Positions 2,232 through 18,681 of a stretch of 64,000 nt of DNA are shown one piece after another. This DNA is from an uncultured Verrucomicrobiota bacterium (lineage in GTDB: Bacteria > Verrucomicrobiota > Verrucomicrobiia > Limisphaerales > CAYMCQ01): positions 2,340-66,339 of the forward strand of contig CAYMCQ010000006.1 in assembly GCA_964389025.1 (NCBI GenBank). Reading direction: 5' to 3'. The position numbers and the translations under genes were made by a program. Under the pieces are notes generated by a model. The model made no database searches. It was not told where the DNA came from and saw only the letters and a list, made by a program, of their open reading frames with translations. Numbering within the stretch: the first letter of the stretch is position 1; the number at the start of each line of letters is the position of its first letter.

Positions 2232-5200
2232 ATGAGCGAAGAAGAAAACTACAAAGCTTACGTTCAGCAAATGCTCCTTCCTGTAAAGAACGCTATCAGT
2301 GCGTTCGACCGTATGGAATTGCTCAAGAGCGCTGGCGGTCTTCAGTTGATACCGGAAAATGCAACTCACCAGATCAGGCTTGAAGCGCTCGCACATATCG
2401 CGGCTTCGCTGCCCAACTCAAAAACTGGTGTCGTACCAACAGTTCATCGCCTTCGTACCGTGCTGAATAGTGGGCCGCTTGAGGGCCAGCCAATTGGAAC
2501 ATCTGAAGATCCTTGTGATAATCCGTTCACCGAAGAAATAACCTTCTACGGAGGCTCTTTTCTGACAATCCCTGGCAGAGGAGAGGAGACCATTTTCATT
2601 GTCCGGCAACTCGCGTCGGCGCTTTTCTTGCATCCCAACCCGATCCAGCACAAGGAATTCATGGCGGCGTCAAGGGCAGTGTTGGGCGCTGCCCTTGTTC
2701 TAGCAGATGCGGTAACACGCAAAGCGGGACTCCATCGAGGAATGGCCCCGGTTTTCCATCGAGATGCCAAGGTTCCAGCTTCCCAAGAACTCGAACGTTT
2801 GAAAAACGCAGTGTATTTTTCTAATTCGGAACTGAATACGGTTTTCTCATCGAAAGGCTACAATCTTGCGGGCCTTGCGCCACTTGTCTGCCCAACGCAG
2901 ACCGATACTCTTGGCAGTTACAGAATTGACAATGGATCACTACTAATCCGGCCTGTGATCTCGAACGAACGCGGGGCGGTTGTAACCATTCCTGGCGGGC
3001 TAATGGCAGCGGCCATCAACGCAGTCATTTCGTTCGCGCAGCAATTCGGCGTTGCTTCTGAACTCGCAGAAAAGTTCGCTGACATGACTTGGCATTCGAT
3101 TCAAGAATCCCTTCGGCGATTGGACAGTCACCCGATCTCCGTTAGGCTGCCGCCAGCGCCAGAAGTTTTGTGCTTCCAGGACGCACTCTTTTCGTTAGAC
3201 ACGGATAAGGTGACCTATGTGCTTTCAATCTGTGATCCGTTGGAGGGTTATGATGCAGGGGTCTTCGTACAAGACTGGAAGATTCCCAGCCTAAATGCGC
3301 TTATCAAGCAGCGGACGTCTGAAATCGCGACCTTTGTTTCATCTTGGCCGAAACCTCCGAACGACATTCTTTGCCTGATCATTCCCCAAAGTCCGGGACG
3401 CTCCTTTCTGATGGGTTTCAATCGAGAAGAAATCCCCTCTTGCGGACCAATGCTGTCCCTGACCGCAGCCGATCTCGACACGCTGACGCAGCTGGACGAC
3501 AACGAGCCCTTAAAGCTCTGGAAATTTGCCGGCGCGCACCGGAAGGTCGCTGATCGCGTCGAAAGAATGATCTCCACTGGTGTGCTGAATGAATACGCGG
3601 TGTACAAGCAACGCGACCACAGTTTCTATTTCTCCGACGAGGCGCGGCCAACCCTTATGGTCTTTCCTCCTGGAAGCGCTGGAGACTTGCGACGAGAAGC
3701 TGCAAATAGCGTTGATTTGCATGGGGTGCTTTCATACGACACCCCGGGGGCCGTGGTGGACGTTGGGACTTTGTTTGGGGCGCGCGATATTCCTTTGTAT
3801 GTCGAACTTCGAAATGCTGGCCGAAGACCAGTTCTTCTGGTAGAGGCATATGACCTACCTGTGTGGGTTGTCGGCCCAGCTCCCAATGAAAAAGAAGAGT
3901 TTCCGATGTTCAGTGAACATGCCCGGTTCGTTGACGCGCTTGCATACTGGTTTTGGCAGATTGCCCCTTCTCTCTCGGAGATGATTTCTTCGGACTCCCT
4001 ATCGCTCGACCAACTTGTAGTCCACGTGAAGCTTATGCTGCACGAAAGTTGGGAGCATGTTGACGTGCAGTTCCCGAATCCCAATCTGCCGCCTGTGACT
4101 GTCACAAATGCCGATGATTCGCTCGATGTACTGATTCATCCCCATATCAGCACCCTCCTTCGTCGAGGTGACAATGCGGGTGAACGCGTGATCGTCGAAA
4201 GCACTCTTCGTGGACTCCGTGAGCTCCTCCCGGCTGGCTCTGCAAAGCTGTCCGACCCAGTCATTCAGGCAATCCTTGATAAGCACGCACCGCTTGGCCT
4301 AAAGAAGCGATTGTTCGCGCTGACTTCTGAAACTGCACCGATACAAAGGTCTGATGGCTTGCCGGATGTCCGTCCACTCCAAGAGGCAGATGAGCAGGAA
4401 GTATTGGACGATCTTGGCGATATGCTGATCGAAACCGATAGGTTAAGCACAGGAAACATTCCGCGTGAAAAACAGAATTCGGTAGCCAACCGTGCAGTTG
4501 CACTCTTGTATGGCGAATTTGAACGAATCATCGCAAACCTCAACGCCGACCACCTACTTGAGTGGCTAATTGCTCACCACGAGCGCTTGCTCGTCGCTCA
4601 AGATTACCACGAGATGAATCTCCCAACTCGACTTGCATGCTTCGGTCCAAAATCAAAGGCATTAGATGACTTCTTGGGCGGCGAACCGAGGCGGGCGGCA
4701 ACAGCAACGGCAGCCCGCTTCGTAATCGAGTATGTTGCCGTGCGCCCGCCATTTGGGGATCGCCCCATAAGCTTAGGCGTCTATGACCGTCTCCAAGCAC
4801 TCGCATCGCACATCATCAATTTGGGCTTCGTCAGTGATCTGATTCGATATGAGCTTTCAAGCGTGGAAGTCACAATTCTCCCGTCCCGACGCATTGCATT
4901 CACCAAGAAGGAATACGACAATGCCATCGGGTTCTTTCAGAGCGCCACCGCCCCGGACAAAATCTCGGCTGCGCATGAGTTGTTTTCCAAACGCTTTGAC
5001 ACGGCAACGTCTCAAACGCCGACTAAGCAAAACGAGTTGTTCGCTGAACTGAACGAAGCGCTAAAGGCGGAGTGCGGATTTAGCTTTGATGAAGTCATCG
5101 ATTTTTGCTCCTGTGCCTCAGCACTGGGATGGGAGCGAAGCACCTCGGGAGTCGTTGCAATTGAAACGGGTGACTTCACGCGTGTTATTTCGTCACGGCT

Positions 5201-5963
5201 CAACTGGCCTGTGAATCGGGTTCAGGACTGCGTCGATTTGCTTTCATTGAAACGGCGCGAACATTTTTTACAACCAGAACATCCCTTCACCAAAGAAGAT
5301 GTTTATCCCTGGCGCTACAATCGTCCATTGGCGTATTTGCGTCGGCCATTTTTGCGCCGGCAAATTGGCAATGGCGAACAACTCGTGTGGGGCTCGCGAC
5401 AAGTTTTGACCTCGATGGATTTCTTGGCACACCTATGTTCGTCCGGACGCTTCAGAGCCAAGACTCTTGCCATGAAGCAATTCCTATCGAAATTGAATAA
5501 CCAACGAGGAGGGCGTTTTAATAAAACGGTTGGAGCATACTTCAAACAATCCTCGCGCTTCAAGGTGAAGGAAAATGTGAAGAAGATTTCCGGCCTCGTT
5601 GGACTACGTGAGATTGGCGAGATCGACGTCTTATTTGCGGACACAAAGGAGTTTCACCTCTGCGTTTGCGAATGCAAGGATCTCGCCGCTGCGCGAACGC
5701 CACACGAACTCGCACTGGAATTGGATAGTCTGTTCGTTGGGGTCGGTGGTAAAGAGGCCATAATTGCGAAATTGGCGCGCAAAGAAAAATGGGTTTCTTC
5801 TCACTTGGAGCACGTTTTGAAATGGATGGGAGTCGAGAAATCCGAACAGAAGTGGAACTGCCAAGCGGTCGTGGTTGCTGATCGCGAGATGATCACGCCG
5901 CAGCTGCGTCGATCCGGCATCCGCATCCTTTCATTCAAGGAATTGAAGAAAATCTACGAGTAA
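2232..5963 (+). CDS. Large orphan protein (1243 aa) with C-terminal PD-(D/E)xK/NERD-like nuclease motif
   Basis: Uninterrupted 3.7-kb ORF, visibly AT-richer than the flanking NTase genes. No Walker or helicase motif found by eye. C-terminus reads GEIDVLFAD...HLCVCECKDL (D..E.K). Its stop is 1 nt from the ATG of the NTase fragment. Confidence 0.6.
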   Translation: MSEEENYKAYVQQMLLPVKNAISAFDRMELLKSAGGLQLIPENATHQIRLEALAHIAASLPNSKTGVVPTVHRLRTVLNSGPLEGQPIGTSEDPCDNPFTEEITFYGGSFLTIPGRGEETIFIVRQLASALFLHPNPIQHKEFMAASRAVLGAALVLADAVTRKAGLHRGMAPVFHRDAKVPASQELERLKNAVYFSNSELNTVFSSKGYNLAGLAPLVCPTQTDTLGSYRIDNGSLLIRPVISNERGAVVTIPGGLMAAAINAVISFAQQFGVASELAEKFADMTWHSIQESLRRLDSHPISVRLPPAPEVLCFQDALFSLDTDKVTYVLSICDPLEGYDAGVFVQDWKIPSLNALIKQRTSEIATFVSSWPKPPNDILCLIIPQSPGRSFLMGFNREEIPSCGPMLSLTAADLDTLTQLDDNEPLKLWKFAGAHRKVADRVERMISTGVLNEYAVYKQRDHSFYFSDEARPTLMVFPPGSAGDLRREAANSVDLHGVLSYDTPGAVVDVGTLFGARDIPLYVELRNAGRRPVLLVEAYDLPVWVVGPAPNEKEEFPMFSEHARFVDALAYWFWQIAPSLSEMISSDSLSLDQLVVHVKLMLHESWEHVDVQFPNPNLPPVTVTNADDSLDVLIHPHISTLLRRGDNAGERVIVESTLRGLRELLPAGSAKLSDPVIQAILDKHAPLGLKKRLFALTSETAPIQRSDGLPDVRPLQEADEQEVLDDLGDMLIETDRLSTGNIPREKQNSVANRAVALLYGEFERIIANLNADHLLEWLIAHHERLLVAQDYHEMNLPTRLACFGPKSKALDDFLGGEPRRAATATAARFVIEYVAVRPPFGDRPISLGVYDRLQALASHIINLGFVSDLIRYELSSVEVTILPSRRIAFTKKEYDNAIGFFQSATAPDKISAAHELFSKRFDTATSQTPTKQNELFAELNEALKAECGFSFDEVIDFCSCASALGWERSTSGVVAIETGDFTRVISSRLNWPVNRVQDCVDLLSLKRREHFLQPEHPFTKEDVYPWRYNRPLAYLRRPFLRRQIGNGEQLVWGSRQVLTSMDFLAHLCSSGRFRAKTLAMKQFLSKLNNQRGGRFNKTVGAYFKQSSRFKVKENVKKISGLVGLREIGEIDVLFADTKEFHLCVCECKDLAAARTPHELALELDSLFVGVGGKEAIIAKLARKEKWVSSHLEHVLKWMGVEKSEQKWNCQAVVVADREMITPQLRRSGIRILSFKELKKIYE

Positions 5964-5964
5964 T

Positions 5965-6069
5965 ATGACCATTCACCCACGCCTTCACCGTATCGTCGCG
6001 GCGCAGCCATATCCGTTGTTGTTCGCCACCATCAGCGGCGCGCCTGCAACGGCAGGGCAGATGCAATGA
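5965..6069 (+). pseudogene. 5' fragment (first ~26 codons) of the 6646..7419 nucleotidyltransferase gene
   Basis: MTIHPRLHRIVAAQPYPLLFATISGA matches MTIDPLLHRIVAAQPYPLLFATISGA. About 79 nt align with about 7 mismatches, then the sequences diverge and a stop follows at 6067. Confidence 0.75.
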
Positions 6070-6076
6070 TTTTCAA

Positions 6077-6613
6077 ATGAATACTCCTCCACTTCACAAG
6101 AAACTAACTATAGATGATGTCGTTGGGCTCGGTCATGCACTCATGGAGGTTGCCTATTGGTACCCGACAAGATTCCTCACAGAGCGAGACTTCTTTCCTC
6201 TAGTGATGGCGTATCTATCCGGTCGCATCCCATATCTGAATAGGGAGGTTGCCGCAACGGAGGGAGTCGTTGACTTTCGGATTGGTGGAAATAATCCGAC
6301 TTGGCTTGAGTTGGCAGTTCAACCGCGCCAACTCATCGATGTGAACAATAAAACACTTCGCTTTCCTGGGCACTCCGCAGTCAACTCCCTTTATGCGGGC
6401 CAGAACAAAACCGAACTTGGCAAGTTGATGAAACAACCGACTGGAACAACTCGATTCTTGCTGCTCTTGGATTTGACCGGCAGATACGATTTGAAGGCAT
6501 TGGTGGCCGGTTACAAACAATTGGGAAAGTCGATCGGCGGCAGGTTTCCGGTACGTGTGATTTACGTCACCATAGATCCTAAGCGCACCATTCATTTCCT
6601 GGTGGGGTGCTGA
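6077..6613 (+). CDS. Hypothetical 178-aa protein, cassette-like insertion; possible restriction-endonuclease-like fold
   Basis: AT-richer ORF bracketed by the duplicated NTase 5' end. VDFRIGG...WLELAVQ resembles a D...E.. nuclease core, but the match is weak. Confidence 0.5.
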   Translation: MNTPPLHKKLTIDDVVGLGHALMEVAYWYPTRFLTERDFFPLVMAYLSGRIPYLNREVAATEGVVDFRIGGNNPTWLELAVQPRQLIDVNNKTLRFPGHSAVNSLYAGQNKTELGKLMKQPTGTTRFLLLLDLTGRYDLKALVAGYKQLGKSIGGRFPVRVIYVTIDPKRTIHFLVGC

Positions 6614-6645
6614 GGGGCTTCCTTCAAACGCCACGAGCTCCAGTC

Positions 6646-7419
6646 ATGACTATTGACCCACTCCTTCACCGCATCGTCGCGGCGCAGCCGTATCCGCTTT
6701 TGTTCGCCACCATCAGCGGCGCGCACCTTTACGGGTTTCCGTCGCCGGACTCAGACTTCGACCTGCGCGGCGCGCATGTGTTGCCGTTCAAAAAGGTCGT
6801 CGGCTTGGAGGTCCGCGATGAAACGGTCCAGGACTCACGCGTCATCGAAGGGCTGGAGATGGACATCGTGAGCCATGACGTGCGGAAGTTCTTCAGCCTG
6901 CTGCTCAAAAAGAACGGTTACGTGCTGGAACAGCTTTTTTCGCCGCTCGTCGTCCACACGACGCCGGAGCATTCGGAATTGAAAACCATTGGGCGCAACT
7001 GCATCACGAAACATCACTCGCATCACTACTTTGGGTTCGCCGAGACGCAGTGGAAGCTGTTCGACAAGGAACGCCCGCGCCGGGTGAAGCCATTGCTCTA
7101 CGTCTATCGCGTTCTGCTCACCGGCATTCACCTGATGCGCACCGGCGAAGTGGAGGCACACCTCGTCACGTTGAACAAAGAACTCCGGCTGCCATACATC
7201 AGTGACCTTGTGGCGAGCAAGCAATCTGGCGAGAACACGACGCTCGCGGACGCTGACGTGGCGTTTCATCAGCGCGAATACGAACGGCTGCGCGCCGAGT
7301 TGCAGACCGCTTACGACGCAAGCCGTTTGCCCGAACTGCCGAGCGAGCAAACGCGCGATGCGCTGAACGATCTCCTGTTACGCGTCCGCCTGAATTCCAA
7401 AACAGATCGAAATCCATGA
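6646..7419 (+). CDS. Pol-beta superfamily nucleotidyltransferase (PF10127/RlaP-like)
   Basis: GAHLYGFPSPDSDFDLRG NTase motif. ATG at 6646 is preferred over the ORF-track start at 6607 because the duplicated fragment at 5965 keeps the same ATG. Confidence 0.75.
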   Translation: MTIDPLLHRIVAAQPYPLLFATISGAHLYGFPSPDSDFDLRGAHVLPFKKVVGLEVRDETVQDSRVIEGLEMDIVSHDVRKFFSLLLKKNGYVLEQLFSPLVVHTTPEHSELKTIGRNCITKHHSHHYFGFAETQWKLFDKERPRRVKPLLYVYRVLLTGIHLMRTGEVEAHLVTLNKELRLPYISDLVASKQSGENTTLADADVAFHQREYERLRAELQTAYDASRLPELPSEQTRDALNDLLLRVRLNSKTDRNP

Positions 7420-7931: not shown

Positions 7932-8015
7932 CGGCGAATCTGGCCCTGCGGTCTGCTTGCAAAGACCGGAGTGTCGAAACATCAATTGGTTGAGCGGCTG
8001 TTTTCATTCGTAGCT

Positions 8016-8043
8016 GTCACAAAAACTGCCTAGTTTTTGTGAC
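8016..8043. repeat. Perfect 12-bp-stem palindrome (gtcacaaaaact/gcct/agtttttgtgac)
   Basis: Read directly from the sequence. Not followed by a T-run on either strand. Confidence 0.8.
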
Positions 8044-8127
8044 AACAACAAGCCGCGACAGCCAATTCTGAACTTCGTGAAGAGAGGCTCGTTGCCGGTA
8101 AGCAGCAACGTTCCGACTCTGTCCTTG

Positions 8128-8367
8128 GTTTGTGGTCGGCAAACAGGAAAAGTGGAGCGGTGGCGGAGAGGAGCGTCTACTGGAATGAAGCCGGAGCGCA
8201 ACGCCCGCCGCCGAGCCGCAGACGGAAGCCCGCCGCACTTGAGGTACATCGCGGATGCGCGCTCGTGACGAGCGCGCGGTTTGAGAAGCGGAGCGGGCGT
8301 GGTCGAGAGGGATACAGGGCCGACCGGCACCCCGTGCAGCAGAGCAGAACCGCGCGTTGGTCACGGC
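8128..8367 (+). repeat. Junction repeat, copy 1 (full length, ~240 nt)
   Basis: Aligns along its length with 18278..18516. Shared blocks are gccgccgagccgcagacggaagc, gctcgtgacgagcgcgcggtttg, ggtcgagaggg and gcgttggtcacggc. A 9-bp GC hairpin sits at 8257..8277. Confidence 0.8.
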
Positions 8368-8473
8368 ATAATCGGCAACGTACGCGGCGTTCCGGCTCGC
8401 ACCGCGCGCAACGAAAATCCTCGTGTGTTCCCAAGTGGTTCAACCTGCACCTGGTTTCAAAGCCCGGATAACC

Positions 8474-8944
8474 CTACTTGTTGCGAAGATGGGATGGCGT
8501 GCGTTTCGGAAACGCGTGGATTAAGGTCGCGGGATCAACGCCCGTCCAACGGCAAAGTTCGGCGTGGGTTTGTGGACCAAAGTTGCTGGGGCGTCGGCCC
8601 GGCGAAAGCAGCCCAGTTCGGAGGGCTTGGCGGACCGACTTTTTGTTAGCGGGAACATCGGATCGGCGAAGACATCGCCAAGCTCGGTAAGAAATCCCGA
8701 TGTCAGGATAAGGGGACGTATCATGATCGGGCCAAATTTGGGGCAAAGTCCCGGGGTCAACACCAGCCCAGTGACAGACTTCCCAATGCGTTTTTTTGCC
8801 GTAGTTTGGCGGCCAACAGTAGGGGTAGAGTTTCGCGGTTTTGAGGGCACGGATGATAGCCTTTTTCTTGATGGGAATGCCGACGTTCAGCAGGCAGCGG
8901 TTCGTCCTCCCGGAAAGCCCGTTTGGAAGTAATTTGGATGTCAT
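8474..8944 (-). CDS. Hypothetical protein with two tandem ~45-aa repeats
   Basis: The units KKKAIIRALKTAKLYP..NYGKKTHWEVCHWAGVDPGTL and NKKSVRQALRTGLLSP..NFGPQTHAELCRWTGVDPATL are conserved at protein level. Confidence 0.45.
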   Translation of the reverse strand: MTSKLLPNGLSGRTNRCLLNVGIPIKKKAIIRALKTAKLYPYCWPPNYGKKTHWEVCHWAGVDPGTLPQIWPDHDTSPYPDIGISYRAWRCLRRSDVPANKKSVRQALRTGLLSPGRRPSNFGPQTHAELCRWTGVDPATLIHAFPKRTPSHLRNK

Positions 8945-8946
8945 GG

Positions 8947-9135
8947 CTATTTCGCCGCCACTTCCACCAACTCCCCGAAGAGCTCCAGAATTTCGGGGCG
9001 AACCTTGCGGTGGTCTTTGGGCAGCAGTCGCCCCTTGGCGGAATCGTAGAGATACGCGTGACGAAGCAGGACGCTGTCCTTCCGGGCTTCAGCCTCCTTG
9101 TCCGCGATGGACTTCGGTTTGGTGTTGGGGTTCAT
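8947..9135 (-). CDS. Small hypothetical protein (62 aa), directly upstream of 8474..8944
   Basis: Its stop is 2 nt from the next gene's start. No motif recognised. Confidence 0.35.
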   Translation of the reverse strand: MNPNTKPKSIADKEAEARKDSVLLRHAYLYDSAKGRLLPKDHRKVRPEILELFGELVEVAAK

Positions 9136-9188
9136 ATTCTTGTCAGGTTAACGGCAGAGAATCGGCAGGCTGCGCGCCAACTCATGCC

Positions 9189-10034
9189 TCAAGGTTTGCA
9201 TTCCGCCAGGAGCTGGCGCACGAAGCCGAGGGCGTCCGCCTGGGTGTCCACCTCCGCTCGACCGAACAGGAATTCGGCAACGCGCCTCGGCCCGATGCTC
9301 TCAGATTCCCGGAAATCCTCCCGCAAGTATGCCAACGCCTTCTTCGCGCTGGCGTCCGCAAGCAACGGACGGAGTTGCGCGGCCACGTCCGCGACGCCGC
9401 GCCCATAGTTCCGCAGCAGATAAAACAAATCGTAAGCGTCCTTGTTCTCACCCCGAATGTGGAAGGCCAGCGCCTTGAGCACCACGAACGCCCCCGCTCC
9501 ACAGACGCGGATGTCCCTCCGGGCGGTCTCTCCGGCGATGGTTCGTCCGTCCAGCGTCACGGTTTGATTGTTGGTGAACGCCAGATGCAAGCCGGGCGCG
9601 ATGATGGCCGCCCAATCTTTAGTGAGCGGGAACAAACGTCCCGCCTGTGCTTCAGCGCTTTTCTCCGGCTCGATCAAAAAATCCACCGTCACCGGCGGAT
9701 CGCTGATGCGCCAGCGTTGGCGTGTGGGCTGGCCCTCCTCGTTCTTGTCCATCTCGAATCCCGCCGCGCGCAAACGTTTCACCACGTCTTGGTAGCGCTG
9801 CTCTCCCACCAGCGCGAACGCCAGCCCCAGGTCAAGGTCGAGCGTGCCCACGTGGGCTGGCACGTTTGCCGGCAGATGCTCCTGATCAATCAGCAGTGAC
9901 GGCACGAGGCCGCCCACGACCACCAGTTCGTGCATCAAGTCGCCTAGCTTGGTGGCGAGATACAGGCATGTGGATTTCACCCGCGCGACCTGGTCGGGCG
10001 CGTAACCGGCGGCGGTCGTTGGTTTCTCAGGCAT
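9189..10034 (-). CDS. Nucleotidyltransferase, AbiEii-like toxin candidate
   Basis: Pol-beta motif VVVGGLVPSLL...HVGTLDLDLGL. 8-nt overlap with the upstream AbiEi-like gene. Confidence 0.55.
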   Translation of the reverse strand: MPEKPTTAAGYAPDQVARVKSTCLYLATKLGDLMHELVVVGGLVPSLLIDQEHLPANVPAHVGTLDLDLGLAFALVGEQRYQDVVKRLRAAGFEMDKNEEGQPTRQRWRISDPPVTVDFLIEPEKSAEAQAGRLFPLTKDWAAIIAPGLHLAFTNNQTVTLDGRTIAGETARRDIRVCGAGAFVVLKALAFHIRGENKDAYDLFYLLRNYGRGVADVAAQLRPLLADASAKKALAYLREDFRESESIGPRRVAEFLFGRAEVDTQADALGFVRQLLAECKP

Positions 10035-11124
10035 GGCTGCCCTTTCTCAGAATCTTCAGACGCAACTGCGCCGCCGCTTCCTCCGACCGTTCGGGATGGT
10101 TCTTCAAATCCAAATACACCTGCACGGGATGAACACAGCGGATTCCGTCGCGCTCCGCCGCGCCGTGAAACACGCCTTCGTCATTGGGCACGACCAGCCA
10201 GACGTTCTCGCCTTTTGGCTGCTCATGGAAACCCATCTCCTGCTGCGCTTCGGCGGACGGCATCTTCGCCACATAAAGAACGGCGAGCCGATAGCCGGCA
10301 AATGGGTTCAGCAACCACGCCCCCGCCAGCCCCGTGGCCGCGTGCTCGATCTTGTCGCGCTTCAATTGTCCGGCCAGTTGCCGCAGCACGTCCTCACTGG
10401 ACCGCGCCGCCACGTGACCCCGCACGACGTGATGTTTCGAGAAATCATAAGCCTCGCGCCATGCGTCCAGCAGCGCGTCATAGTAGGCGACCTTCACCGC
10501 GCCATCCGGCTCGCGTGCCACGAGGCGCTCTGCTTCCAGTTGCCGGACAATCCGGCTGGTGAAGCCTTCATCTAAACCGCTCGCCTTCGCCAGTTCCCGC
10601 TGGCTGAACGCACGCTCGGGCTCGATCAACAACCAACGCGCAATCCGCGCGCTTTTCGGCGCGAACACACTGCGCGGTCGGCCCGGGCGCTTGAACTGGT
10701 TCGGCTTCCCCTCGATGTTCACCCGCAGGCCCGCCCCAACCAGATGGGCATTGCCGGACAAGTCCATCCAGCACACGTCTGCTTCCTCGCACAGTTTCTG
10801 CCCGACCTCGCCGATGAAGGGCGCGGCCACGAGCGGGATGAGTTTCTTGCGGGATTTTTCGACAAACCGGCTGATGGACCGGACCGCCATGGCCACCGCC
10901 GACGCCTGGCCGGACGCCTTCCACTCCACGGCAAAGTGAAAATTCCCCGCCGACACCAGCAGATCCGCCCGGTTGTTCTCGTCGCCCGGAACAAACGGTT
11001 CGAGTTTCACCTTGACCCGGCTCATGGGCAGGGCCAGCAACTCCGCCAGCCGGCGCGGGATGTCCTCCACCATTCTCGAATTCAATTCTCGGCTCATGTT
11101 GTCCAAATACCAAAACTTGAGCAC
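10027..11124 (-). CDS. AbiEi-like antitoxin/transcriptional regulator with extra N-terminal nuclease-like module
   Basis: Central wHTH (SQRELAKASGLDEGFTSRIVRQLEAERLV). AbiEi-type C-terminal region (GIRCVHPVQVYLDLKNHPERSEEAA). N-terminus has DLLVS...FAVEWK (D..E.K). Confidence 0.55.
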   Translation of the reverse strand: MLKFWYLDNMSRELNSRMVEDIPRRLAELLALPMSRVKVKLEPFVPGDENNRADLLVSAGNFHFAVEWKASGQASAVAMAVRSISRFVEKSRKKLIPLVAAPFIGEVGQKLCEEADVCWMDLSGNAHLVGAGLRVNIEGKPNQFKRPGRPRSVFAPKSARIARWLLIEPERAFSQRELAKASGLDEGFTSRIVRQLEAERLVAREPDGAVKVAYYDALLDAWREAYDFSKHHVVRGHVAARSSEDVLRQLAGQLKRDKIEHAATGLAGAWLLNPFAGYRLAVLYVAKMPSAEAQQEMGFHEQPKGENVWLVVPNDEGVFHGAAERDGIRCVHPVQVYLDLKNHPERSEEAAAQLRLKILRKGSHA

Positions 11125-11224
11125 GCGGTCAAGGCAGCCTATTTAAGCAAGTTGTTGCTCTCTGCACCTCCGCTTTATCCCCCTGCCTCTGTTGGCAAAT
11201 CGGGCTGAGGCTTCTGTCTGCGTG

Positions 11225-11316
11225 GCGGGCGGGGAAGTTGAACGAGCGCGGTCGAGAGGGTGGCAGGGCCGACCGGCAGCCCGTGGAGCGCACCAAAACC
11301 GTGCGTTGGTTACGGT
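11225..11316 (+). repeat. Junction repeat, copy 2 (5'-truncated, ~92 nt)
   Basis: Shares gcggtcgagagggtggcagggccgaccggca.cccgtg...aaaaccgtgcgttggt.acgg with the 3' parts of copies 1 and 3. Confidence 0.75.
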
Positions 11317-11588
11317 GGACCAGCACGACAATTGTCTCCGCAGCGCAGAGACAATCAAATCCCGCTCCGCAAATTGTTCAGATAGTTGAACAACTTCATG
11401 TGCGCGAATGCTCTAAACAATTGCCGTTATCGTATGAATGCAAACGGAAATAATCAGTCATCGCCGACACCAGAGAAGGAGCGACTCGCCTAAGTCACCG
11501 ACCGTAGCCAATCTCTTGTCGCCATGCGCATAAACAACTGAACGGTTTCGACTTGCCAGACACACCCTGATCGCCAAGCTCTTTCGTC

Positions 11589-12728
11589 ATGGCGACACGC
11601 GCGATAAAGGTTGAGGTGAGCCCGATGCCTCCTTTTCTTTCCGTCAGTATGGATCTGGAGGTCGACCGGTTTTTCAAAGGGATTTTCGCGAAATCTGCCG
11701 CTTTGCAGATCGCTCCTCAACTCTTTGCCTCAACCTTGAAGGCAATCCTGGAAGACCAATTCACCGACGGCAATGCGGCAGGTGCTTGGTCTCGGCAATA
11801 TTCGGGTTACATTCGGTTTTTCTATGATGGATCACTTCCGATTGACGTGGCCGTCCGCGACACGATCAGTTACTCAGCGTGGATCGCTACATCGCTCTGC
11901 AATTGCAGAAGGCATTTTTCCGAAAGTGATCTGACCTCGGCTGTTGCTCCACGCCTGACTGCCTTTCGTGATTATCTTCATCGCCATTTTGACAAGGAAT
12001 CTGGTGGGTTTGGGCTCGTAGGCCCCGCCAGAACGCGGGGACCTGGTCATATACAAGCGGATTTGAGGCACACTGCTTGGGCTATGCTTGCATTGCGGAA
12101 CCTCGAAGCCAACGATCAACACTCCATGGAAATGTTGACCCGAGGTGCTGAGTACGTGAGGAGGGCACTTTCTGCCGGAAAGGCGACGAACGAGAGAGCC
12201 ATCACGGCTGCGGCTGTACATAAGCTGCTCTCAACTGAGGAACTCAAGAATCTGGTGTGCCCGTCAGAGCGAACGCGCCACGCAGACTTGAAGCGCATCG
12301 AGGCCAAGCTCGTCGAAGATTTCGACAAGGAATTCGTTACTTGGGATAGCCGATTTGACCGGCCAGATAGGGCATCAATTGACAACGCCCTGTATGTCTT
12401 GTACTGCATTCCAGCAAATGGTTGTGTGGATGCACAGTGTTCGAAGATCCTGCTCCAGACATTGCACCACCTAATAGAGAATGCACTTGTAGACACTGGC
12501 TCCGGTTCGGCGGGATTACCATTCGCCAGAGGTCGCGAACCCAATGTCGGCACAACAGCTTTTGTTTTATCGTTATTATTGCGTGACCGGGCGTCGATCA
12601 AACCTAGTCGCAAGCTCTTGGGCCGACTCACTAGGTTCCTGAACACCCCCGAGACGCAGACTCCCGCGGTAGAGGTCGGCTTTCCATGGCAGAGGGCAGC
12701 GATCCTGGACTTAGCGGCCGGAGGTTAG
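11589..12728 (+). CDS. Prenyltransferase/squalene-cyclase-repeat (alpha/alpha-toroid) protein
   Basis: KESGGFGLVG and RHTAWAMLALRNLE are typical toroid-repeat signatures. An alternative start at 11625 follows the SD-like GAGGTGAG. Confidence 0.5.
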   Translation: MATRAIKVEVSPMPPFLSVSMDLEVDRFFKGIFAKSAALQIAPQLFASTLKAILEDQFTDGNAAGAWSRQYSGYIRFFYDGSLPIDVAVRDTISYSAWIATSLCNCRRHFSESDLTSAVAPRLTAFRDYLHRHFDKESGGFGLVGPARTRGPGHIQADLRHTAWAMLALRNLEANDQHSMEMLTRGAEYVRRALSAGKATNERAITAAAVHKLLSTEELKNLVCPSERTRHADLKRIEAKLVEDFDKEFVTWDSRFDRPDRASIDNALYVLYCIPANGCVDAQCSKILLQTLHHLIENALVDTGSGSAGLPFARGREPNVGTTAFVLSLLLRDRASIKPSRKLLGRLTRFLNTPETQTPAVEVGFPWQRAAILDLAAGG

Positions 12729-12791
12729 CCAATTGTAAACAACGGATACCGAGTCGTGTGGCGAAGGTTGCGACAGGGCTTTGGCGACCTC

Positions 12792-13847
12792 TTACTTGGC
12801 CGCTTTTACTGCTTGCCAGGCTTTATCGTACAGGTCCAACGCGCTTCCCAAGTTTTGTATCTGCTCAAGTTTACTCGTGTCGTTAGCCGTCTGTAGTTGG
12901 TCCCAGAGCGCCTTGGTGTCGTCAGGCACGAGATCCTTGGCCCTGGTGTTGGGAAGGGCATACTTAATTGTTTCCGCAATGTCAGCGGCGACAGCGGGGT
13001 CTAGGACGTGATTGATAAACTGGTTTGCGAGGGCCGCGTTGGCCGCATTCGTCGGAATGCACATGTAGTCAACGTACATTAAAGTGCCCTCCTTCGGTAC
13101 CATGAAGCGGATGTTCTTATTGCGCTTGGCGGCCTGGAGTATGTCTCCCGACCACGCGTATGCGAGCTTCACTTCACCACTGCCCAGCAGTTGCGGAATG
13201 TTCGAACTTGTATAGACGTGAACCAGTTCCTTTTGTGCAAGCAATGTGTCTCTGGCCTCGGCAAGTTCGGCCGCGTTGGTGGAGTTTGCGGAGTATCCTT
13301 TTGCTTTGAGTGCCATTCCTAAGGAGGCACGCATGTCGTCGAGCATGAGGATTTTGCCCTTGAACCGAGGGTCAAAGAGTATTGCGAAGGATCGTACGTC
13401 GTCATCTGAGATTACGGTTGAGTCGTAGCCGATTCCCGTAGTTGACCACGTGTAGGGTACGCACAGATTTAACTCCTTATCGAAGCTCGGATGGGCAAAC
13501 TCAGCCATCAGATTGGTCAGGTTGGGGAGAGCTGCATGGTCAATTGGGCGTAGCAACCCCTTTGCGCGCAGTATCTCCACAGCGTACGACGACGGGAAAA
13601 CCAGGTCATACTGCGCTCCGCCACTTTCTAATTTTGCGATCAGGTCTTCGTTGGAGGAATAATTATCATAGATCACTTTTGCCGCATTGTTCGCCCGGAA
13701 GGATTCGATGGTTTTAGAACCGATGTAGTCGGTCCAGTTGAAGATGCGGAGCGTGTCTTGTTGGGGCGAGCGCCCGCAACCGGCGAGCAGCAGTGCAACG
13801 AGAAGGATAGGCTTAAGTATTTTCATGAACGATTCGCGGTTTTCCAA
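12792..13847 (-). CDS. potD: Spermidine/putrescine ABC transporter substrate-binding lipoprotein
   Basis: Lipobox LLLAGCG and PotD/PotF-like sequence throughout. Last gene of the pot operon. Confidence 0.8.
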   Translation of the reverse strand: MENRESFMKILKPILLVALLLAGCGRSPQQDTLRIFNWTDYIGSKTIESFRANNAAKVIYDNYSSNEDLIAKLESGGAQYDLVFPSSYAVEILRAKGLLRPIDHAALPNLTNLMAEFAHPSFDKELNLCVPYTWSTTGIGYDSTVISDDDVRSFAILFDPRFKGKILMLDDMRASLGMALKAKGYSANSTNAAELAEARDTLLAQKELVHVYTSSNIPQLLGSGEVKLAYAWSGDILQAAKRNKNIRFMVPKEGTLMYVDYMCIPTNAANAALANQFINHVLDPAVAADIAETIKYALPNTRAKDLVPDDTKALWDQLQTANDTSKLEQIQNLGSALDLYDKAWQAVKAAK

Positions 13848-14605
13848 AAGGTTTCCGAAGTCCAGAACAGCAGCAAGACAATTACGGCGAGTCCCACATA
13901 GATAACGTTAATGCTCGAATTGACGCCGAACTTTACCATCCCGTAAATCTTAACTGAGAGCGTGGTTGTTGACGCGCCGCCGCAGAAAAATGCATAAACA
14001 AAGTCTTGGGCGCTCATCGCAGCCACAATGCTTGTCCCGGCGAGCGCTGGTGCGACCGCCAAGGGCAAAAAGTGGTCGCGCACGGCGCGGAATGGAGAGG
14101 CGCCGAGACTTTCCGCAGCGGTCAAATACTGATCGAAGTCGATGGATTTCATCCTGATGGCAACAAACAGGGCAATGTATGCGATGCCAAAGGTGCTGTG
14201 AGAGATTGCGATTGTAAAGACGCCTTTCTGAATCCCAAAGGTCTTGTATGAGAGTGCCTGGGCGAGAGCCATTATCAGATCGGGCGCAAGAACAGGCAGG
14301 AACAAACAGCTAAGCAGCGCGGTGAAGAGTCGGTTCTTTGACAACGCGACGCAGTAGCCGGACAGCATCCCAATCGTAAGGGATATCAGAGAGGATAAGA
14401 CAACGACTCGAGACGTGTTCCACAGGGCCGTCAATATCCCTTCATCAGACCAAACCTCGTGGTACCATCGAAGTGAAAAGGACTCCCAGATCATGCCTCT
14501 GCTTGCGGAGTTAAAGGAAAAAACGATCACGAGCAATACGGGTAGGTAGAGAAGCGTGATTGCGACGCCACCAGTCAGAATTAGAATTAGACGGTTCCGT
14601 TGCAT
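13823..14605 (-). CDS. potC: Spermidine/putrescine ABC transporter permease
   Basis: Multi-TM BPD-type permease that overlaps potD. Confidence 0.8.
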   Translation of the reverse strand: MQRNRLILILTGGVAITLLYLPVLLVIVFSFNSASRGMIWESFSLRWYHEVWSDEGILTALWNTSRVVVLSSLISLTIGMLSGYCVALSKNRLFTALLSCLFLPVLAPDLIMALAQALSYKTFGIQKGVFTIAISHSTFGIAYIALFVAIRMKSIDFDQYLTAAESLGASPFRAVRDHFLPLAVAPALAGTSIVAAMSAQDFVYAFFCGGASTTTLSVKIYGMVKFGVNSSINVIYVGLAVIVLLLFWTSETFWKTANRS

Positions 14606-14609
14606 CGCG

Positions 14610-15488
14610 TCAACGTGCGAAGATTCCTTTAGCGAGTCTGCTAAGAGGCAAGAGTGCGAGGCTGCCGAGACATAGAATTGTGATCGCGAGAGCTGCCCCC
14701 ATTGGCCAATTTCGGCCTTCGTAAAAACTGAACTGGATCAGGGTACCAGCCAGCATGTGCTTACCGCCTCCTAGCAGATCGGGGATTACGAACTCGGAGA
14801 ATGATGGGATGAACACCATCAAAGCTCCTGTCATCCAGCCCGGGCGTGTCATAGGCAGGATGATCCGTCGAACCGTGTAAAGCTCTCCGGCGCCCAGTGC
14901 TGATGAAGCGATGAGAAAGCGGTCATCGAGCCGCTCGAGCGCTGTGAGAAACGCGAGCAGGAAGAATGGAAGGTAAGCCCCTACAAGTCCGATTATGACT
15001 GCACCTGGACTAAACAGGAGCGGGATGGGCTGCGAGATCATGCCTGCTTTCAAGAGAATGCCGTTGAGCACGCCGGCATTACCCAAAAGCACTTGCCAGT
15101 TGTAGGTTACCATTAAGGCGTTGAGCCCCAATGGAAACAACATTGCCACCATCGCCGCCCGCCGAAACGCAGGTGCGCACCTTCGGATCGAAACGGAAAG
15201 GGGAATGCCGATGGCCATGCATATGGCCGTTGTAATTGCGGCATAGCAAAGTGAGCGCACCACCACGACGGTTGTGGCTGCGGTAAGTAAATCCCTCCAT
15301 CCCTGTAAGCTCCACGTCGGAACTGTTCCCCCAAGAAAGTCACGTTGCCTGAACGATGTAAACAGCACTGTGAGGAGCGGAACGCAAAGCAGGCTGAAGA
15401 CATAGATGCCAAACCCAGCGATGGCGATGTTGAACAGCAGCCGTTCCTGCCAAGAAGTGAGGCGATGGCGTTGCTGCTGTGGGTTCAT
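14610..15488 (-). CDS. potB: Spermidine/putrescine ABC transporter permease
   Basis: Multi-TM permease. Start chosen at MNPQQ, which gives an ATGA overlap with the potA stop (the ORF track extends to 15539). Confidence 0.8.
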   Translation of the reverse strand: MNPQQQRHRLTSWQERLLFNIAIAGFGIYVFSLLCVPLLTVLFTSFRQRDFLGGTVPTWSLQGWRDLLTAATTVVVVRSLCYAAITTAICMAIGIPLSVSIRRCAPAFRRAAMVAMLFPLGLNALMVTYNWQVLLGNAGVLNGILLKAGMISQPIPLLFSPGAVIIGLVGAYLPFFLLAFLTALERLDDRFLIASSALGAGELYTVRRIILPMTRPGWMTGALMVFIPSFSEFVIPDLLGGGKHMLAGTLIQFSFYEGRNWPMGAALAITILCLGSLALLPLSRLAKGIFAR

Positions 15489-15490
15489 AG

Positions 15491-16585
15491 TCAGTTCTGC
15501 AAGACGCAGACATCGCTGGCGGAAACGTAAAGCGTACATGGATCGCCAACCCTGAGTGTTGTGTTATTGCGCGAATCTGTGGTGAGGAACACGTCATCGA
15601 GACACCGCACCGTAAGCTTTGTAAGCACTCCGGCGAATTCAACGGCTTCAACCTTGCCGTGGAGGGAGACGGAGGGAGAATCCTCCGGCTTATCAAATTT
15701 GAGGGATTCTGGACGTAAGGCGAGGTACTTAACATTTTGTGTTCTGTTTGAAGGCAACTGAAGCCAGTTGCCGCCTTCGGTCTTAGCTTTGTCACCATTG
15801 AGAGCGACGACCGGCAGCAGATTTGTATCTCCAACCAGGGTGGCAACAAACCGGGAAACCGGTTTCCGATAGATTTCGACCGGAGAGGCGACTTGGACGA
15901 TCTCGCCATCATTCATAACGGCAATGCGAGAATGGAAGCGTGCCGTCATTGAGAATGCTTCCTCGACGTCGTGGGTAACGTAAATTGTCGTGACGCCTGC
16001 TCTGTGGATCAAATTGCCCACAAGGTCGCAAATGGATGACCTTAGAGGACGGTCCAAGCCTGCGGTCATTTCATCCAAAAGCAGGACTGGTTGTGGATCA
16101 GCTAAAGCGCGAGCCACAGAAACGCGTTGGGTTTCGCCGCCCGAGAGTTCTAGCGGCTTGCGTTTGTCGAAACCAGCGAGGCCGACTTGGGAGAGAAGAG
16201 CGATTGCGTGGCTGAGGGCTTCCGAGCGGGCGACGCCCTTGACGTTGAGCGCGTATGCAACGTTTTCAGCCACTGTCAGGTGTGGAAAGAGGAAACCTCC
16301 TTTCTGAAAGCAGGTCCGTACCGGCCTGCGATAGGCGGGAAGGTTGGTCACGTCCTCTTCGCCAAACAGTACCCTCCCTGTGTCCTGGCGGACCCAACCA
16401 CCGGCAAGGCCGAGAAGTGTGGACTTGCCACAGCCCGAGGGACCCAACAAGCAAATGAATTCACATGGCTTGACGGAGAGGTTGATCGTCTGAATGCAAA
16501 AATGGGGATTAAGCACCTTGCTAACGTTTTCGAATGTGATGGAAAGACCGGACATTGTAGGAAGCCTCGACCTTGGGATGGTCAC
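15491..16585 (-). CDS. potA: Spermidine/putrescine ABC transporter ATPase
   Basis: Walker A GPSGCGKST, signature LSGGETQR, Walker B LLLDE and a C-terminal TOBE-like region. Confidence 0.9.
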   Translation of the reverse strand: MTIPRSRLPTMSGLSITFENVSKVLNPHFCIQTINLSVKPCEFICLLGPSGCGKSTLLGLAGGWVRQDTGRVLFGEEDVTNLPAYRRPVRTCFQKGGFLFPHLTVAENVAYALNVKGVARSEALSHAIALLSQVGLAGFDKRKPLELSGGETQRVSVARALADPQPVLLLDEMTAGLDRPLRSSICDLVGNLIHRAGVTTIYVTHDVEEAFSMTARFHSRIAVMNDGEIVQVASPVEIYRKPVSRFVATLVGDTNLLPVVALNGDKAKTEGGNWLQLPSNRTQNVKYLALRPESLKFDKPEDSPSVSLHGKVEAVEFAGVLTKLTVRCLDDVFLTTDSRNNTTLRVGDPCTLYVSASDVCVLQN

Positions 16586-17520
16586 CGTGGTGGGTATTTT
16601 TTGCCGAGTGCCTGGAGTTGGCTGTTTATTGCATCCACGATTTTCTTTCCGTCTTGCTTGCCGGCTGCGAGAATGTCCAAGTTCCAGCTACCGATCTCTC
16701 TTGGCCAATAGGCCAAGCAGCGCGTTCTGTTGGGGTCAGCGAAGCGATAAATTGCCAAGCCATATCCAACACTATGCGGGAACTCCCTGTCAGGGATGAA
16801 ATGGACCTTGAACTGCGACTGCACCCTCCCTTTGGGGTCGGAGCAGGATAGCTTGGAAAGCCCGAGCTCTAATCTGGCGCGTAGATTAGCAAGTGCTCCC
16901 TCGTTTGGGGATGTCTCCAAAACAAAGTAGTCGTAAACAGGACCGGTTGATTTAAAGAGATTTTGGATGATAACGGCTTCGTATTGAGGCTGCTGTTCAT
17001 AAAAGAAATCTGGCGCGAGCACACTGATGCCGGAATCAGTAGCTGCCTCAAGCTGCAGAATCTGCTCGTCGTTGTAGAGCCAGTCGTGTGTGTTCTTCAC
17101 GAGTACGTGGAACTGACGCTCCTGATCCGCCAAGCTTCCTCGGACTCGGTCGCGCTCGGCTTCAAAAGCGGAGCGCTCGGCCTGTAGCTTCCTGATTTCC
17201 AGGAGTGAAGTTTCGTGCGCCGTTTTGAGTTCAGCGAGTGCGTGACCCCACTTTTGCTTTTCGTGGAACTTGATGTACTCCTTGACCAGAAAGCCGGCAA
17301 TAGATGCCGCGATTGCTACTGCGAGGAGCCAACAGACGAGCGAACCAGCGAACTCCCCCCAGTGGCCCTCGATCGCGTGGGATATGAGCCAATGTTCCAC
17401 CGCAACGAAAGCGATAAATGCTAAGAGCACCAGGCATGAGCTAAAAAGTGCAAGTGGCTTCTTCCCAGAAAAGAATTGCAAAAACTGCTGGCCCGTTTCG
17501 TTACTATTGTCGTGGTTCAT
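16582..17520 (-). CDS. Membrane-anchored coiled-coil protein, unknown function
   Basis: Two N-terminal TM segments, a coiled coil (LLEIRKLQAERSAFEAERDRV) and a globular C-terminal domain. 4-nt overlap with potA. Confidence 0.55.
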   Translation of the reverse strand: MNHDNSNETGQQFLQFFSGKKPLALFSSCLVLLAFIAFVAVEHWLISHAIEGHWGEFAGSLVCWLLAVAIAASIAGFLVKEYIKFHEKQKWGHALAELKTAHETSLLEIRKLQAERSAFEAERDRVRGSLADQERQFHVLVKNTHDWLYNDEQILQLEAATDSGISVLAPDFFYEQQPQYEAVIIQNLFKSTGPVYDYFVLETSPNEGALANLRARLELGLSKLSCSDPKGRVQSQFKVHFIPDREFPHSVGYGLAIYRFADPNRTRCLAYWPREIGSWNLDILAAGKQDGKKIVDAINSQLQALGKKYPPR

Positions 17521-18100
17521 TTTTGTTATCTCCAGCTTTTGAGCCGTTCTGATACTGTTGAAGCGGCAATGTGTTGAAATCGCGGTAGACCAGCTTGACG
17601 AAGGTCTGACGAAGATCTGCCGGGATTTCGTTCAGGCTGTTCCGGGCAGCATCGCAGAATTTCTTTTCGAGGTGGGCGTTCTCCGCGGCTGGGCAGTCGG
17701 CGTCTACCAGATAGCCACCGAGAGGGTTGGCGGTTTTGTCCATGGTCAATGGCCAGGAGCGGCAATCCGTTGGGCGAATGTCGTAGATGCCGCAGAGTCG
17801 GTCTGGTGTGAGAAATGGACAAGGGCGTCCCTTTTCCTTCTTGACCGTGAAAAGACCGGCTTCCTCTTGTTGGAGTAAATCAGCCCTCCCTGTCCTGGCG
17901 ATGATCTTCTCGGCTTCTTGGGGAAGGACTACTATGGTCATCGCCCGAAAACAGCAGTGCTTGGTTGTCGGACAAATTTTGCAGAAGGAGTAAAGACTGT
18001 TCGGATCGTGTTTAGCGACCTCCTCTGGAGTTTCTGGTCTGGGCGCGGTCGGCGGGGCTACGGCAGTGTTGCTAAAGGATGAATGTTGATCTAGGGCCAT
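17504..18100 (-). CDS. YkgJ-family Cys-cluster (CxxCxxCC, PF03692-like) protein
   Basis: CKICPTTKHCC and CPFL...LCGIYDIRPTDCRSWP. Start set at MALDQ (18100); the ORF-track extension to 18394 runs into repeat copy 3. Confidence 0.6.
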   Translation of the reverse strand: MALDQHSSFSNTAVAPPTAPRPETPEEVAKHDPNSLYSFCKICPTTKHCCFRAMTIVVLPQEAEKIIARTGRADLLQQEEAGLFTVKKEKGRPCPFLTPDRLCGIYDIRPTDCRSWPLTMDKTANPLGGYLVDADCPAAENAHLEKKFCDAARNSLNEIPADLRQTFVKLVYRDFNTLPLQQYQNGSKAGDNKNEPRQ

Positions 18101-18277
18101 TTTTGGAATTGGATGATACCGATGTATGGGTGTTTCGTAAAGCGCCGTAAGCTTGCTTGTGATTGCTTGTGCGATCTGACATCGCGGTGCAACAATATTC
18201 AGTTTTCCAATTTGGACTTTGGTTGCACTGGCAACACTTTGCTTCGCACGATACGAAAGACAAGAATCGCTTCGGTC

Positions 18278-18516
18278 TGCGGTCGGCGAGCGCGGAGAAT
18301 GGAGCGGAAGGCGGAGAGAGCGCATAGCGGAACGCATCTGCAGCGCAACGTTCGCCGCCGAGCCGCAGACGGAAGCGTGCCGCGCTTGCGGCACAATGCG
18401 GATGCTCGCTCGTGACGAGCGCGCGGTTTGCGGAGTGGAACGAATGCGGTCGAGAGGGGGGACGGGGCCGAGCCAGCAATCCGTGAAACGCAGTCAAACC
18501 GTGCGTTGGTCACGGC
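18278..18516 (+). repeat. Junction repeat, copy 3 (full length, ~239 nt)
   Basis: Collinear with copy 1; see 8128..8367. Confidence 0.8.
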
Positions 18517-18681
18517 GGTGGAGCGATTCAAGCAGCCAAGCAGAATTGACAGCCCTCGTGGCTGGCGTAGCCTGACGACAAGTTCGGGTGGCGGTACGTT
18601 TTTTCAGCGGGGTTCCCCACCCCCACCTCCTTGGCGTCCGCCGCCCGGACTTTCAGTTTCCGATTCGTCCGGTTGACTGCC

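Follow-up and report, generated by a model that had tools for sequence, protein, structure and literature searches.

A GC-rich repeat present in three same-orientation copies in a 64,000-nt stretch from an uncultured Verrucomicrobiota bacterium (contig CAYMCQ010000006.1, positions 2,340 to 66,339 of the forward strand; the whole stretch is called the window) was analyzed by comparison with related loci. The repeat, named E here, is an undescribed element of about 245 nt which belongs to the backbone of a family of type IV secretion system (T4SS) conjugative elements of soil Verrucomicrobiota and Acidobacteriota. Its fold is conserved, covarying and strand-specific, and E is the point where modules differ between related elements. 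The distribution of sequence identity within E suggested that modules are probably exchanged by recombination between E copies, most simply by homologous recombination, and no recombinase was consistently found near E. No prior description was found in the literature on DUF1016/YhcG or on Verrucomicrobia RNA motifs.

The distribution of E was determined with degenerate patterns and a profile. The first pattern detected 27 loci in the GTDB species representatives, mostly in metagenome-assembled genomes (MAGs) of Verrucomicrobiota (Limisphaerales/Pedosphaerales), and three of the matches were Acidobacteria/Terriglobales MAGs. A second pattern retrieved at least 120 metagenome contigs, which together with the GTDB loci gave the 147 related loci (numbered with the prefix L) among which the family counts were made. 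The nhmmer profile then identified at least 210 copies or fragments in 148 sources (the window and the 147 loci), including 174 at full length, and the ends of the element were sharp (5' GCTTCGGTCTG, 3' GCGTTGGTCACGGCG). No E copy was found in PLSDB plasmids and INPHARED phages by BLAST, or in IMG/VR viral contigs by pattern scan. After clustering, the copies were classified into a main type, T7, with 137 copies including every cargo-flanking copy, and several minor types. Adjacent T7 copies were 73-94% identical. The minor types were located in tandem arrays with the fixed order T7-T6-T1 or T7-T5-T1, in which spacers of about 150 and 130 nt were conserved in at least seven loci; a same-strand DUF72 (YecE-like) gene often followed within about 50 nt, and the array together with a second non-coding block, U, described below, made up more than 1.2 kb of conserved non-coding sequence. 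The copies in tandem arrays are old ordered paralogues and not recent insertions. In L004, a group II intron (1262-3230) was observed to split an E copy at profile positions 72/73, in sense orientation to E, with an Rfam RF00029 (domains V/VI) match at 1334-1261 on the minus strand.

To describe the fold, an alignment (A4) of 146 copies with mutual identity below 95% was built and the consensus was computed by RNAalifold. The consensus consisted of domain 1, a long irregular hairpin of about 108 nt, a 5-bp hairpin, and domain 3, a long hairpin of about 110 nt which enclosed an inner hairpin ACGGGCGUGGUCG/CGACCGGCAGCCCGU with a G-rich loop of 15 nt. It contained 78 pairs, for which 91.9% of the cells formed a standard pair, a proportion that is favoured by taking structure and pair counts from the same alignment, while the compensatory counts are much less affected. 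Compensatory change was present in 52 of the 78 pairs, and 405 double-change cells were observed compared to 81.7 +/- 8 in shuffled alignments (none of 500 reached 405) and 75-133 with slid partners. By this generic test of a structured nucleic acid, compensatory change above the shuffled and slid controls was found for E and for U. G-U/G-T cells (649) outnumbered A-C cells (241), and G-U was the dominant state at two pair positions, in 109 and 125 of the 146 copies. The plus strand folded more stably than its complement in every one of the 146 copies, with RNA and DNA parameters alike. The minimum free energy (MFE) of the two full-length window copies was -119.3 kcal/mol for copy A and -125.1 kcal/mol for copy C (z -3.0 for both). 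In the 5' arm of copy A, three of the five differences from the consensus were C-to-T (C-to-U) changes, which kept a wobble G-U pair on the plus strand only.

The sequence of E was conserved as well as its pairing. Mean column identity was 65% over the 146 copies, the sequence by the 3' boundary, GTGACGA...TTGGTCAC, was invariant, and unpaired segments such as GGUCGAGAGGG and GUGGAGCGG were highly conserved. The 9-bp hairpin which an earlier reading of the window, made from its letters alone (the sequence-only reading), had described as shared by the copies was present in copy A but nowhere else at that length. A local 6-bp version could form in 90% of cells over the 146 copies, with one double-change cell, which was no better than the shuffles and gave it no covariation support; its 3' arm instead formed a long-range helix with the invariant TTGGTCAC end, and strong covariation was seen in the inner part of this helix. 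The same reading had regarded the open reading frames across the copies (with VTNARF or RPRARHERASA) as artefacts, and this was borne out, because they recur only with the element, 1-2 nt indels separate the copies, and selection acts on base pairing. No conserved reading frame was found in E, whose copies frequently differed by such indels, and the frames on both strands merely tracked the repeat. At the apex of domain 1, TAGCG(A/G) was conserved in most T7 copies (window 18322-18327; A4 columns about 78-83). We take it to resemble the CS-6 motif (TAGCGT) of ssoA-type origins, in which an RSB motif is conserved as well; this is a lead only, and the likeness could be due to chance.

Comparison of the flanks revealed that related elements part from each other at E. 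In 63 locus pairs, the 200 nt on one side of E were at least 85% identical and the other side was unrelated; the upstream flank was shared in 45 of these pairs, and the downstream flank together with E in 18. Alignments of example pairs showed that homology began or stopped at E. When the upstream flank was shared, the identity of E in successive quarters from 5' to 3' was 0.87, 0.89, 0.82 and 0.77, and when the downstream flank was shared it was 0.86, 0.91, 0.90 and 0.92, compared with 0.79, 0.82, 0.74 and 0.81 in random T7 pairs, a gradient which is an average and not a mapped crossover. This decay of linkage to the shared flank across E suggested crossovers inside E, and the fact that E travels with either flank argued against a one-sided site of the attC type. 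In L076, a jetABCD (Wadjet) operon was located exactly between two E copies. The proposal of the sequence-only reading that the copies could be sites of module swapping agreed with the one-flank homology, the decay of linkage and the L076 arrangement. Its suggestion that the copies might be substrates of the integrase-like protein at 44059 was not supported, as no homologue of that protein was found among 817 open reading frames of the 147 loci. A Phage_integrase domain was detected in 2 of 147 non-redundant cargo proteins.

The cargo between the copies was diverse and rich in defence genes, including BrxC, pAgo, Dnd, Wadjet, type III restriction-modification (R-M), AbiE, NERD and HipA; efflux and sugar-metabolism genes were also found. 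Cargo modules, mostly of defence, followed a founding E and were parted by further E copies of the same orientation, which was uniform in 46 of the 47 loci with at least two copies. The neighbours of the 174 full-length copies were tallied. On the 5' side were a same-strand gene in 54 cases (median gap 34 nt), an opposite-strand gene in 51 (median 146 nt), U in 33, another E in 24 and the locus end in 12. On the 3' side were a same-strand gene in 49 cases, a convergent opposite-strand gene in 89 (median 61 nt), another E in 23, the locus end in 13, and U in none.

Synteny on both sides of this variable region showed that the E family belongs to a conjugative element whose cargo region is marked by E. 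Upstream, a VirB4/TraC-like ATPase, small open reading frames, a ClpB-like AAA protein and a MORN-like or 422-aa protein were kept. The backbone order was VirB4-like, ClpB-like, U, a yhcG-type gene (PDC-S02) and E, followed by the genes of the coupling protein and the TrwC relaxase. The hypervariable content 3' of the founding E was closed by an E abutting the 3' end of the TrwB-type coupling-protein (T4CP) gene, followed by TrwC, and this E-T4CP junction was identical in L022, L101 and L128. In all seven loci having TrwC, it was on the strand of E. No origin of transfer with its nick site (oriT/nic) could be located from the alignment upstream of TrwC. A minimal arrangement, YhcG> E> 106aa< T4CP<, was found in L077, which is apparently the empty state.

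U was detected in 48 loci on the same strand as E and always upstream of it. It forms a stem-closed fold of about 150-170 nt with the sequence GACAG..CGCGAUGAAAACCUAGAGGCAAAAC..GGCGGCGGCGGGCGGGUCAAGG...CCUUGACGCG..GCCGCC..UUUCAUCGCGCUGUC, and a -10-like TAGAAT was present 5' of it. Of its 54 pairs, 90% of cells were paired; compensatory pairs numbered 13 compared to 6.0 +/- 1.7 in shuffles, a moderate support, and double-change cells 26 compared to 7.8 +/- 2.4. U and E covaried independently and bracketed yhcG. An intact or partial yhcG/DUF1016 gene for a PD-(D/E)XK nuclease was located between them in about ten loci and matched the PADLOC candidate PDC-S02 (E-value 5e-135), and the founding E began 2-7 nt past the yhcG stop codon in 17 loci. 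Most other U-E loci shared one deletion derivative of yhcG, and at least 33 loci kept U and E without yhcG. A sigma-54-like reading of TGGCAAATCGGCTTGAA 5' of some E copies was ruled out, since these nucleotides encode the C-terminus of YhcG. A repeat-peptide insertion of yhcG (IQSVIGE/RQSLIDE/GQSAIDE; L007:3751-3860) contained two or three CCAATCAnTGATTGG palindromes, and palindromes of this kind were also present in the U-E spacer of L001, L017, L020, L021 and L003. Their interpretation as operators of a 'master' RNA gene was ruled out, as they lie inside the coding region and two of them survive in the shared deletion derivative; being part of what that derivative retained, they may be a protein-binding site or a hairpin of their own.

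In the window, the left 47 kb (1-47300) formed one large defence island, and all three E copies in it were intergenic, on the plus strand and GC-rich throughout. After their limits were refined with the family profile (Table 1), copies A and C showed 77% identity across 244 nt (blastn E-value 5e-47; 76% when compared as T7 copies), and copy B matched copy A in its 3' part (1e-16). The three same-orientation repeats of the sequence-only reading were thus placed essentially right and are far beyond chance, and no further E copy was found in the 64 kb by blastn or nhmmer. As that reading had it, the copies separated four distinct gene blocks: an RlaP nucleotidyltransferase (NTase)/Upx-like/RNase T operon, an AbiEi/AbiEii block, a 379-aa/potABCD/CxxCxxCC block, and a type III R-M block with Abi_2. 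Copy B had been described as the 3' ~40% only. The last ~90 nt were indeed kept, but E positions 1-33 were also kept and joined to them; about 130 internal nt were lost, which removed the small hairpin, the 5' arm of domain 3 and the greater part of domain 1. The earlier idea of a decayed element applies to copy B, an internally deleted remnant. A yhcG tail (TGGCAAATCGGGCTGA) 5' of copy B matched intact yhcG-E junctions elsewhere, and the same tail preceded E in L007, L011, L012 and L019. Copy B is a decayed relic of the original backbone yhcG-E junction, and copies A and C are two diverged T7 junction copies of the defence island. U, yhcG and T4SS genes were absent from the window; they may lie to its left, or may have been lost.

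The mechanism which we favour tentatively combines two roles of E. At the DNA level, E copies would serve as portable homology, at which crossovers would combine the left side of an array with the right side of a different one, so that modules could be gained, lost and swapped without a dedicated integrase. At the RNA level, E would be made as the trailer or an intercistronic part of plus-strand transcripts from U/yhcG or from upstream genes, and would act as a stable 3'-end or insulating structure ahead of cargo lying mostly on the opposite strand. A role of the fold in the transcript is favoured over one as single-stranded DNA (ssDNA) because the founding E is co-oriented with U and yhcG and immediately follows them, a -10-like element lies upstream of U, operon-like units U-yhcG-E-E-E-DUF72 hold ordered paralogues with conserved spacers, specific G-U pairs are conserved, the intron of L004 is in sense orientation, and the relaxase gene TrwC is on the strand of E. 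As for exchange, a comparable setting is found in integrative conjugative elements (ICEs). Garriss, Waldor and Burrus are said to have described in 2009 the variable-region hotspots of ICEs of the SXT/R391 type and hybrid ICEs formed by recombination. Like the E family, SXT/R391 ICEs have a conserved conjugative backbone, cargo at fixed intergenic positions, and mosaics arising when co-resident elements recombine, but their hotspots are not known to be marked by a repeated structured element, whereas the E family has a folded 245-nt repeat at every junction.

Several observations weigh against this mechanism. E had no -10 element at a fixed distance on its 5' side and was followed by no canonical U-tract terminator, with T mildly enriched at +10 to +12. 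The genes 3' of the first E were more often antisense to it (305, or 62%) than on its strand (183), and the nearly equal numbers of same- and opposite-strand genes on the 5' side indicated that many copies are not simple 3' trailers of the upstream gene. The uniform orientation of E despite mixed gene directions would also fit a strand-specific role at the DNA level, and a 245-nt fold with highly conserved loops exceeds what an insulator needs. On the side of exchange, E is alignable in every copy, so breakpoints at its ends are partly inevitable and cannot decide the matter by themselves; more can be read from the identity profile within E, with the averaging already stated.

The main rival is that E is an ssDNA element of the conjugative element, either a priming site of the single-strand origin or initiation type (sso/ssi) or an Frpo-like ssDNA promoter. 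In the recipient cell, the transferred strand would adopt this fold, and synthesis of the complementary strand or early transcription would begin from it. Cargo-spaced copies would then act like Okazaki start sites, and their conservation would make them recombination hotspots, like the RSB in staphylococcal sso. This is unlikely in our judgement, but much of the evidence can be read in its favour: the conjugative setting, the strict strand specificity with an orientation uniform whatever the local gene direction, three stem-loops within 245 nt without an own promoter or terminator, cargo mostly on the strand templated by the E strand, and 51 copies positioned upstream of the start codon of a gene on the opposite strand, at about 146 nt. 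There are also precedents that double as recombination hotspots. The sso elements, of about 160-200 nt, are orientation-specific, take varying positions among gene cassettes and include a site of recombination (PMC5703833); sso1 of ICEBs1 has three stem-loops with redundant partners (PMC4595007); and Frpo/ssi elements are multi-copy in leading regions (PMC11541004). Taken together, ssoA/U/T, ICEBs1 sso1 and Frpo/ssi resemble E in being non-coding, 150-330 nt long, built of several stem-loops and orientation-specific, in residing on transferable elements between cassettes, sometimes in several copies, and in being recombination hotspots (PMC5703833, PMC4595007, PMC11541004). E shared no sequence similarity with them and had no match in the plasmid or phage collections, and no pair of sigma-70 -35/-10 hexamers was found inside copies A, B and C on either strand. 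Frpo/ssi promoters present their -35 and -10 (and UP) elements in the stem of the ssDNA hairpin. Tandem arrays of three diverged copies with conserved spacers in a yhcG...DUF72 unit are unexpected for priming sites, and the other 45 kb of the window island contained no E. The strand of the relaxase gene would also speak against an ssDNA role. In the usual MOBF geometry, TrwC on the strand of E would mean that the other strand is transferred, and E was on the relaxase-sense strand in all seven loci.

The remaining alternatives are weaker than the ssDNA rival. E, with U, might act in trans or in cis as an RNA that partners the YhcG/PDC-S02 nuclease; processing of the yhcG transcript would release it, and it could be antitoxin-like, a decoy, an activator or a guide scaffold, the copies near other modules being secondary. 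The close spacing of E to the yhcG stop, the position of yhcG between two independently covarying structures, arrays of up to four E copies after yhcG or U, and the conserved unpaired segments would all suit such a partner; HEARO/IscB omega RNA, TnpB omega RNA, ROOL and GOLLD are likewise structured, covarying, multi-copy and next to a nuclease gene on mobile DNA. This role is nevertheless distinctly unlikely, considering that yhcG was lost by the same deletion in at least 33 loci which keep U and E, that 137 of the classified copies are of the cargo-flanking type and mostly far from any yhcG, and that no variable guide-like segment could be defined, the flanks being just neighbouring genes. 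E also differed from this group in having no Rfam match even at E-values of 1-10, and in that the adjacent nuclease is PD-(D/E)XK rather than RuvC/HNH, no guide segment is evident and most copies are away from the nuclease gene. In general, the sequence-only reading had matched the repeat to no known RNA family, and this was confirmed: Rfam 15 gave no hit in the whole window at gathering thresholds, permissive searches of copies A and C gave chance-level matches only (E-value at least 0.4), and no hit was obtained at E-values up to 1 on U and E of L021, or in five U-E loci. The structured element which it had considered was in turn supported by the 146-copy alignment.

An integron-like platform, in which E is an attC-like site recognised by its structure and used by a dedicated recombinase, either the 44059 protein or YhcG as initiator, would account for same-orientation, strand-specifically folded repeats at swappable cassette boundaries behind a conserved head (U-yhcG), for the 3' boundary sequence being the most conserved part as in attC, for tight tandem copies that resemble empty cassettes, and for rearrangements and truncations inside E. 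In our reading, GTTGGTC in E resembles GTTRRRY, the integron core, apart from one mismatch; it pairs with GACGAG and not with RYYYAAC. The sites known as attC are 57-141 nt long with low sequence conservation. E, in contrast, is 245 nt and highly conserved including its loops, folds into three helical domains instead of a single imperfect hairpin, and is without IntI and R/L core boxes. No IntI/attI platform was present by the array, whose backbone neighbours were VirB4-like, ClpB-like, MORN-like and YhcG, and neither the conserved backbone nor, as a rule, the cargo provided a recombinase. The modules of E are multi-gene and in both orientations, crossovers appear distributed with a gradual decay of linkage instead of one point, E moved with its downstream flank in 18 pairs and the reverse was seen in 45, and yhcG is often deleted while U and E persist. 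Taken together, these differences make an attC-like site very unlikely. A related tRNA-like att model, with island integration into the 3' end of an RNA gene, was rejected because the additional E copies are mostly complete and the modules come without an integrase.

Least probable of all is a selfish non-autonomous repeat of the MITE, REP or BOX kind, transposing into intergenic DNA with a fold that meets only the need of a transposase. E has many copies, all of them between genes and with sharp ends; a convergent gene pair often surrounds it (89 of the 138 genes next to it on the 3' side are convergent), and truncated and decayed copies are common. However, there was no target-site duplication, the longest words shared by the flanks being those expected after shuffling, no terminal inverted repeat, no conserved target motif, no flank conservation beyond G at -1 (5') and G at +1 (3'), and no associated transposase; the paralogue arrays keep order and spacers across genomes, and the location is fixed in a conserved backbone. 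REP/BIME, ERIC and pneumococcal BOX are also multi-copy intergenic repeats between convergent genes, and pdif modules of Acinetobacter plasmids also have sites flanking mobile modules, but E is much longer than all of these, conserved across two phyla, restricted to a single element family, arranged in direct and not inverted copies, and without an evident Xer-type core. In every known family open to testing, E differed in the defining features, and Rfam does not contain it. By analogy, E would work like a cassette-boundary repeat, for which attC arrays, sso/RSB among plasmid cassettes and ICE hotspots are the closest counterparts.

The island of the window contained, in addition to the blocks at E, a MORC-like ATPase with AIPR, SNF2, and a Wadjet jetABCD operon (34852-41353); its genes further included the Upx-like gene (2232-5963), two RlaP NTases, AbiEi/Eii and the type III R-M with Abi_2. 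At its edge was a 1070-aa protein with a weak tyrosine-recombinase match and an HTH domain (44059-47271), followed by core genes; the right third from about 47.5 kb was core genome, with a pterin-binding enzyme and cytochrome oxidase genes. The MORC-like (HATPase_c_3) protein (25455-27455) had an 86% identical counterpart in L131 and L067, where it is the first cargo gene immediately following E; the same module therefore adjoins E elsewhere, but in the window 7 kb separate it from the closest E. At 8015-8044, past the RNase T-like gene, whose stop is at 7931, and before copy A, an inverted repeat of 13 bp without mismatches was observed, TGTCACAAAAACT-GCCT-AGTTTTTGTGACA, which looks like the real terminator of the NTase operon. 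A direct repeat of 79 nt (91% identity) was located at 5965-6043 and 6646-6724 with an ATG at the start of both copies, the first just past the stop of the 1243-aa Upx-like gene and before an unannotated open reading frame (6077-6613), the second inside the 5' part of an RlaP NTase frame (6607-7419). In the core-genome part, direct repeats at 60122-60252 and 62168-62294 (81-96% identity, spacing about 2044 nt) are probably paralogous gene segments.

Table 1. Coordinates of E copies, their domains and associated features (window positions unless a locus is named)
Feature	Location	Strand	Evidence
Copy A of E, full length, type T7	8122-8368	+	nhmmer profile positions 2-244, 216 bits
Copy A, domain 1 hairpin	8122-8229	+	mapped from alignment A4
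Copy A, small hairpin	8232-8245	+	mapped from alignment A4
Copy A, domain 3 hairpin	8260-8368	+	mapped from alignment A4
3'-end remnant of yhcG-type gene, TGTTGGCAAATCGGGCTGAG, including TGA stop, abutting copy B	11190-11209	+	local alignment to intact yhcG-E junction of L007
Copy B of E, internally deleted	11210-11318	+	nhmmer profile positions 161-244, 62.8 bits; alignment
Copy C of E, full length, type T7	18269-18517	+	nhmmer profile positions 1-245, 201.8 bits
Copy C, domain 1 hairpin	18269-18376	+	domain mapping
Copy C, small hairpin	18379-18392	+	domain mapping
Copy C, domain 3 hairpin	18407-18517 (inner hairpin 18440-18484)	+	domain mapping
U element	L021:2908-3184(-), L001:710-966, L020:565-838, L003:22-280 and 44 further loci		
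Tandem arrays of E paralogues	L116, L003, L099, L091, L139, L023, L120 (e.g. L116:448-1432)		

If these interpretations are right, E and U are two new structured motifs, strongly supported and outside Rfam, from soil phyla that have been little studied, and a family of conjugative elements builds mosaic defence islands at a repeated folded junction and not via integrases or transposases. E would then offer a handle for finding the boundaries of island modules in Verrucomicrobiota and Acidobacteriota, and the widespread, uncharacterised YhcG/DUF1016 (PDC-S02) nuclease would gain a conserved non-coding context. A bolder reading, which we consider improbable, is that U-yhcG-E is an integrase-independent cassette platform, in which the PDC-S02 nuclease would recognise folded E as DNA or RNA and start the recombination that captures and reshuffles defence modules, or that E is the RNA cofactor of a new nuclease-RNA defence system; such a platform would amount to a second, mechanistically different 'integron' for immune genes.

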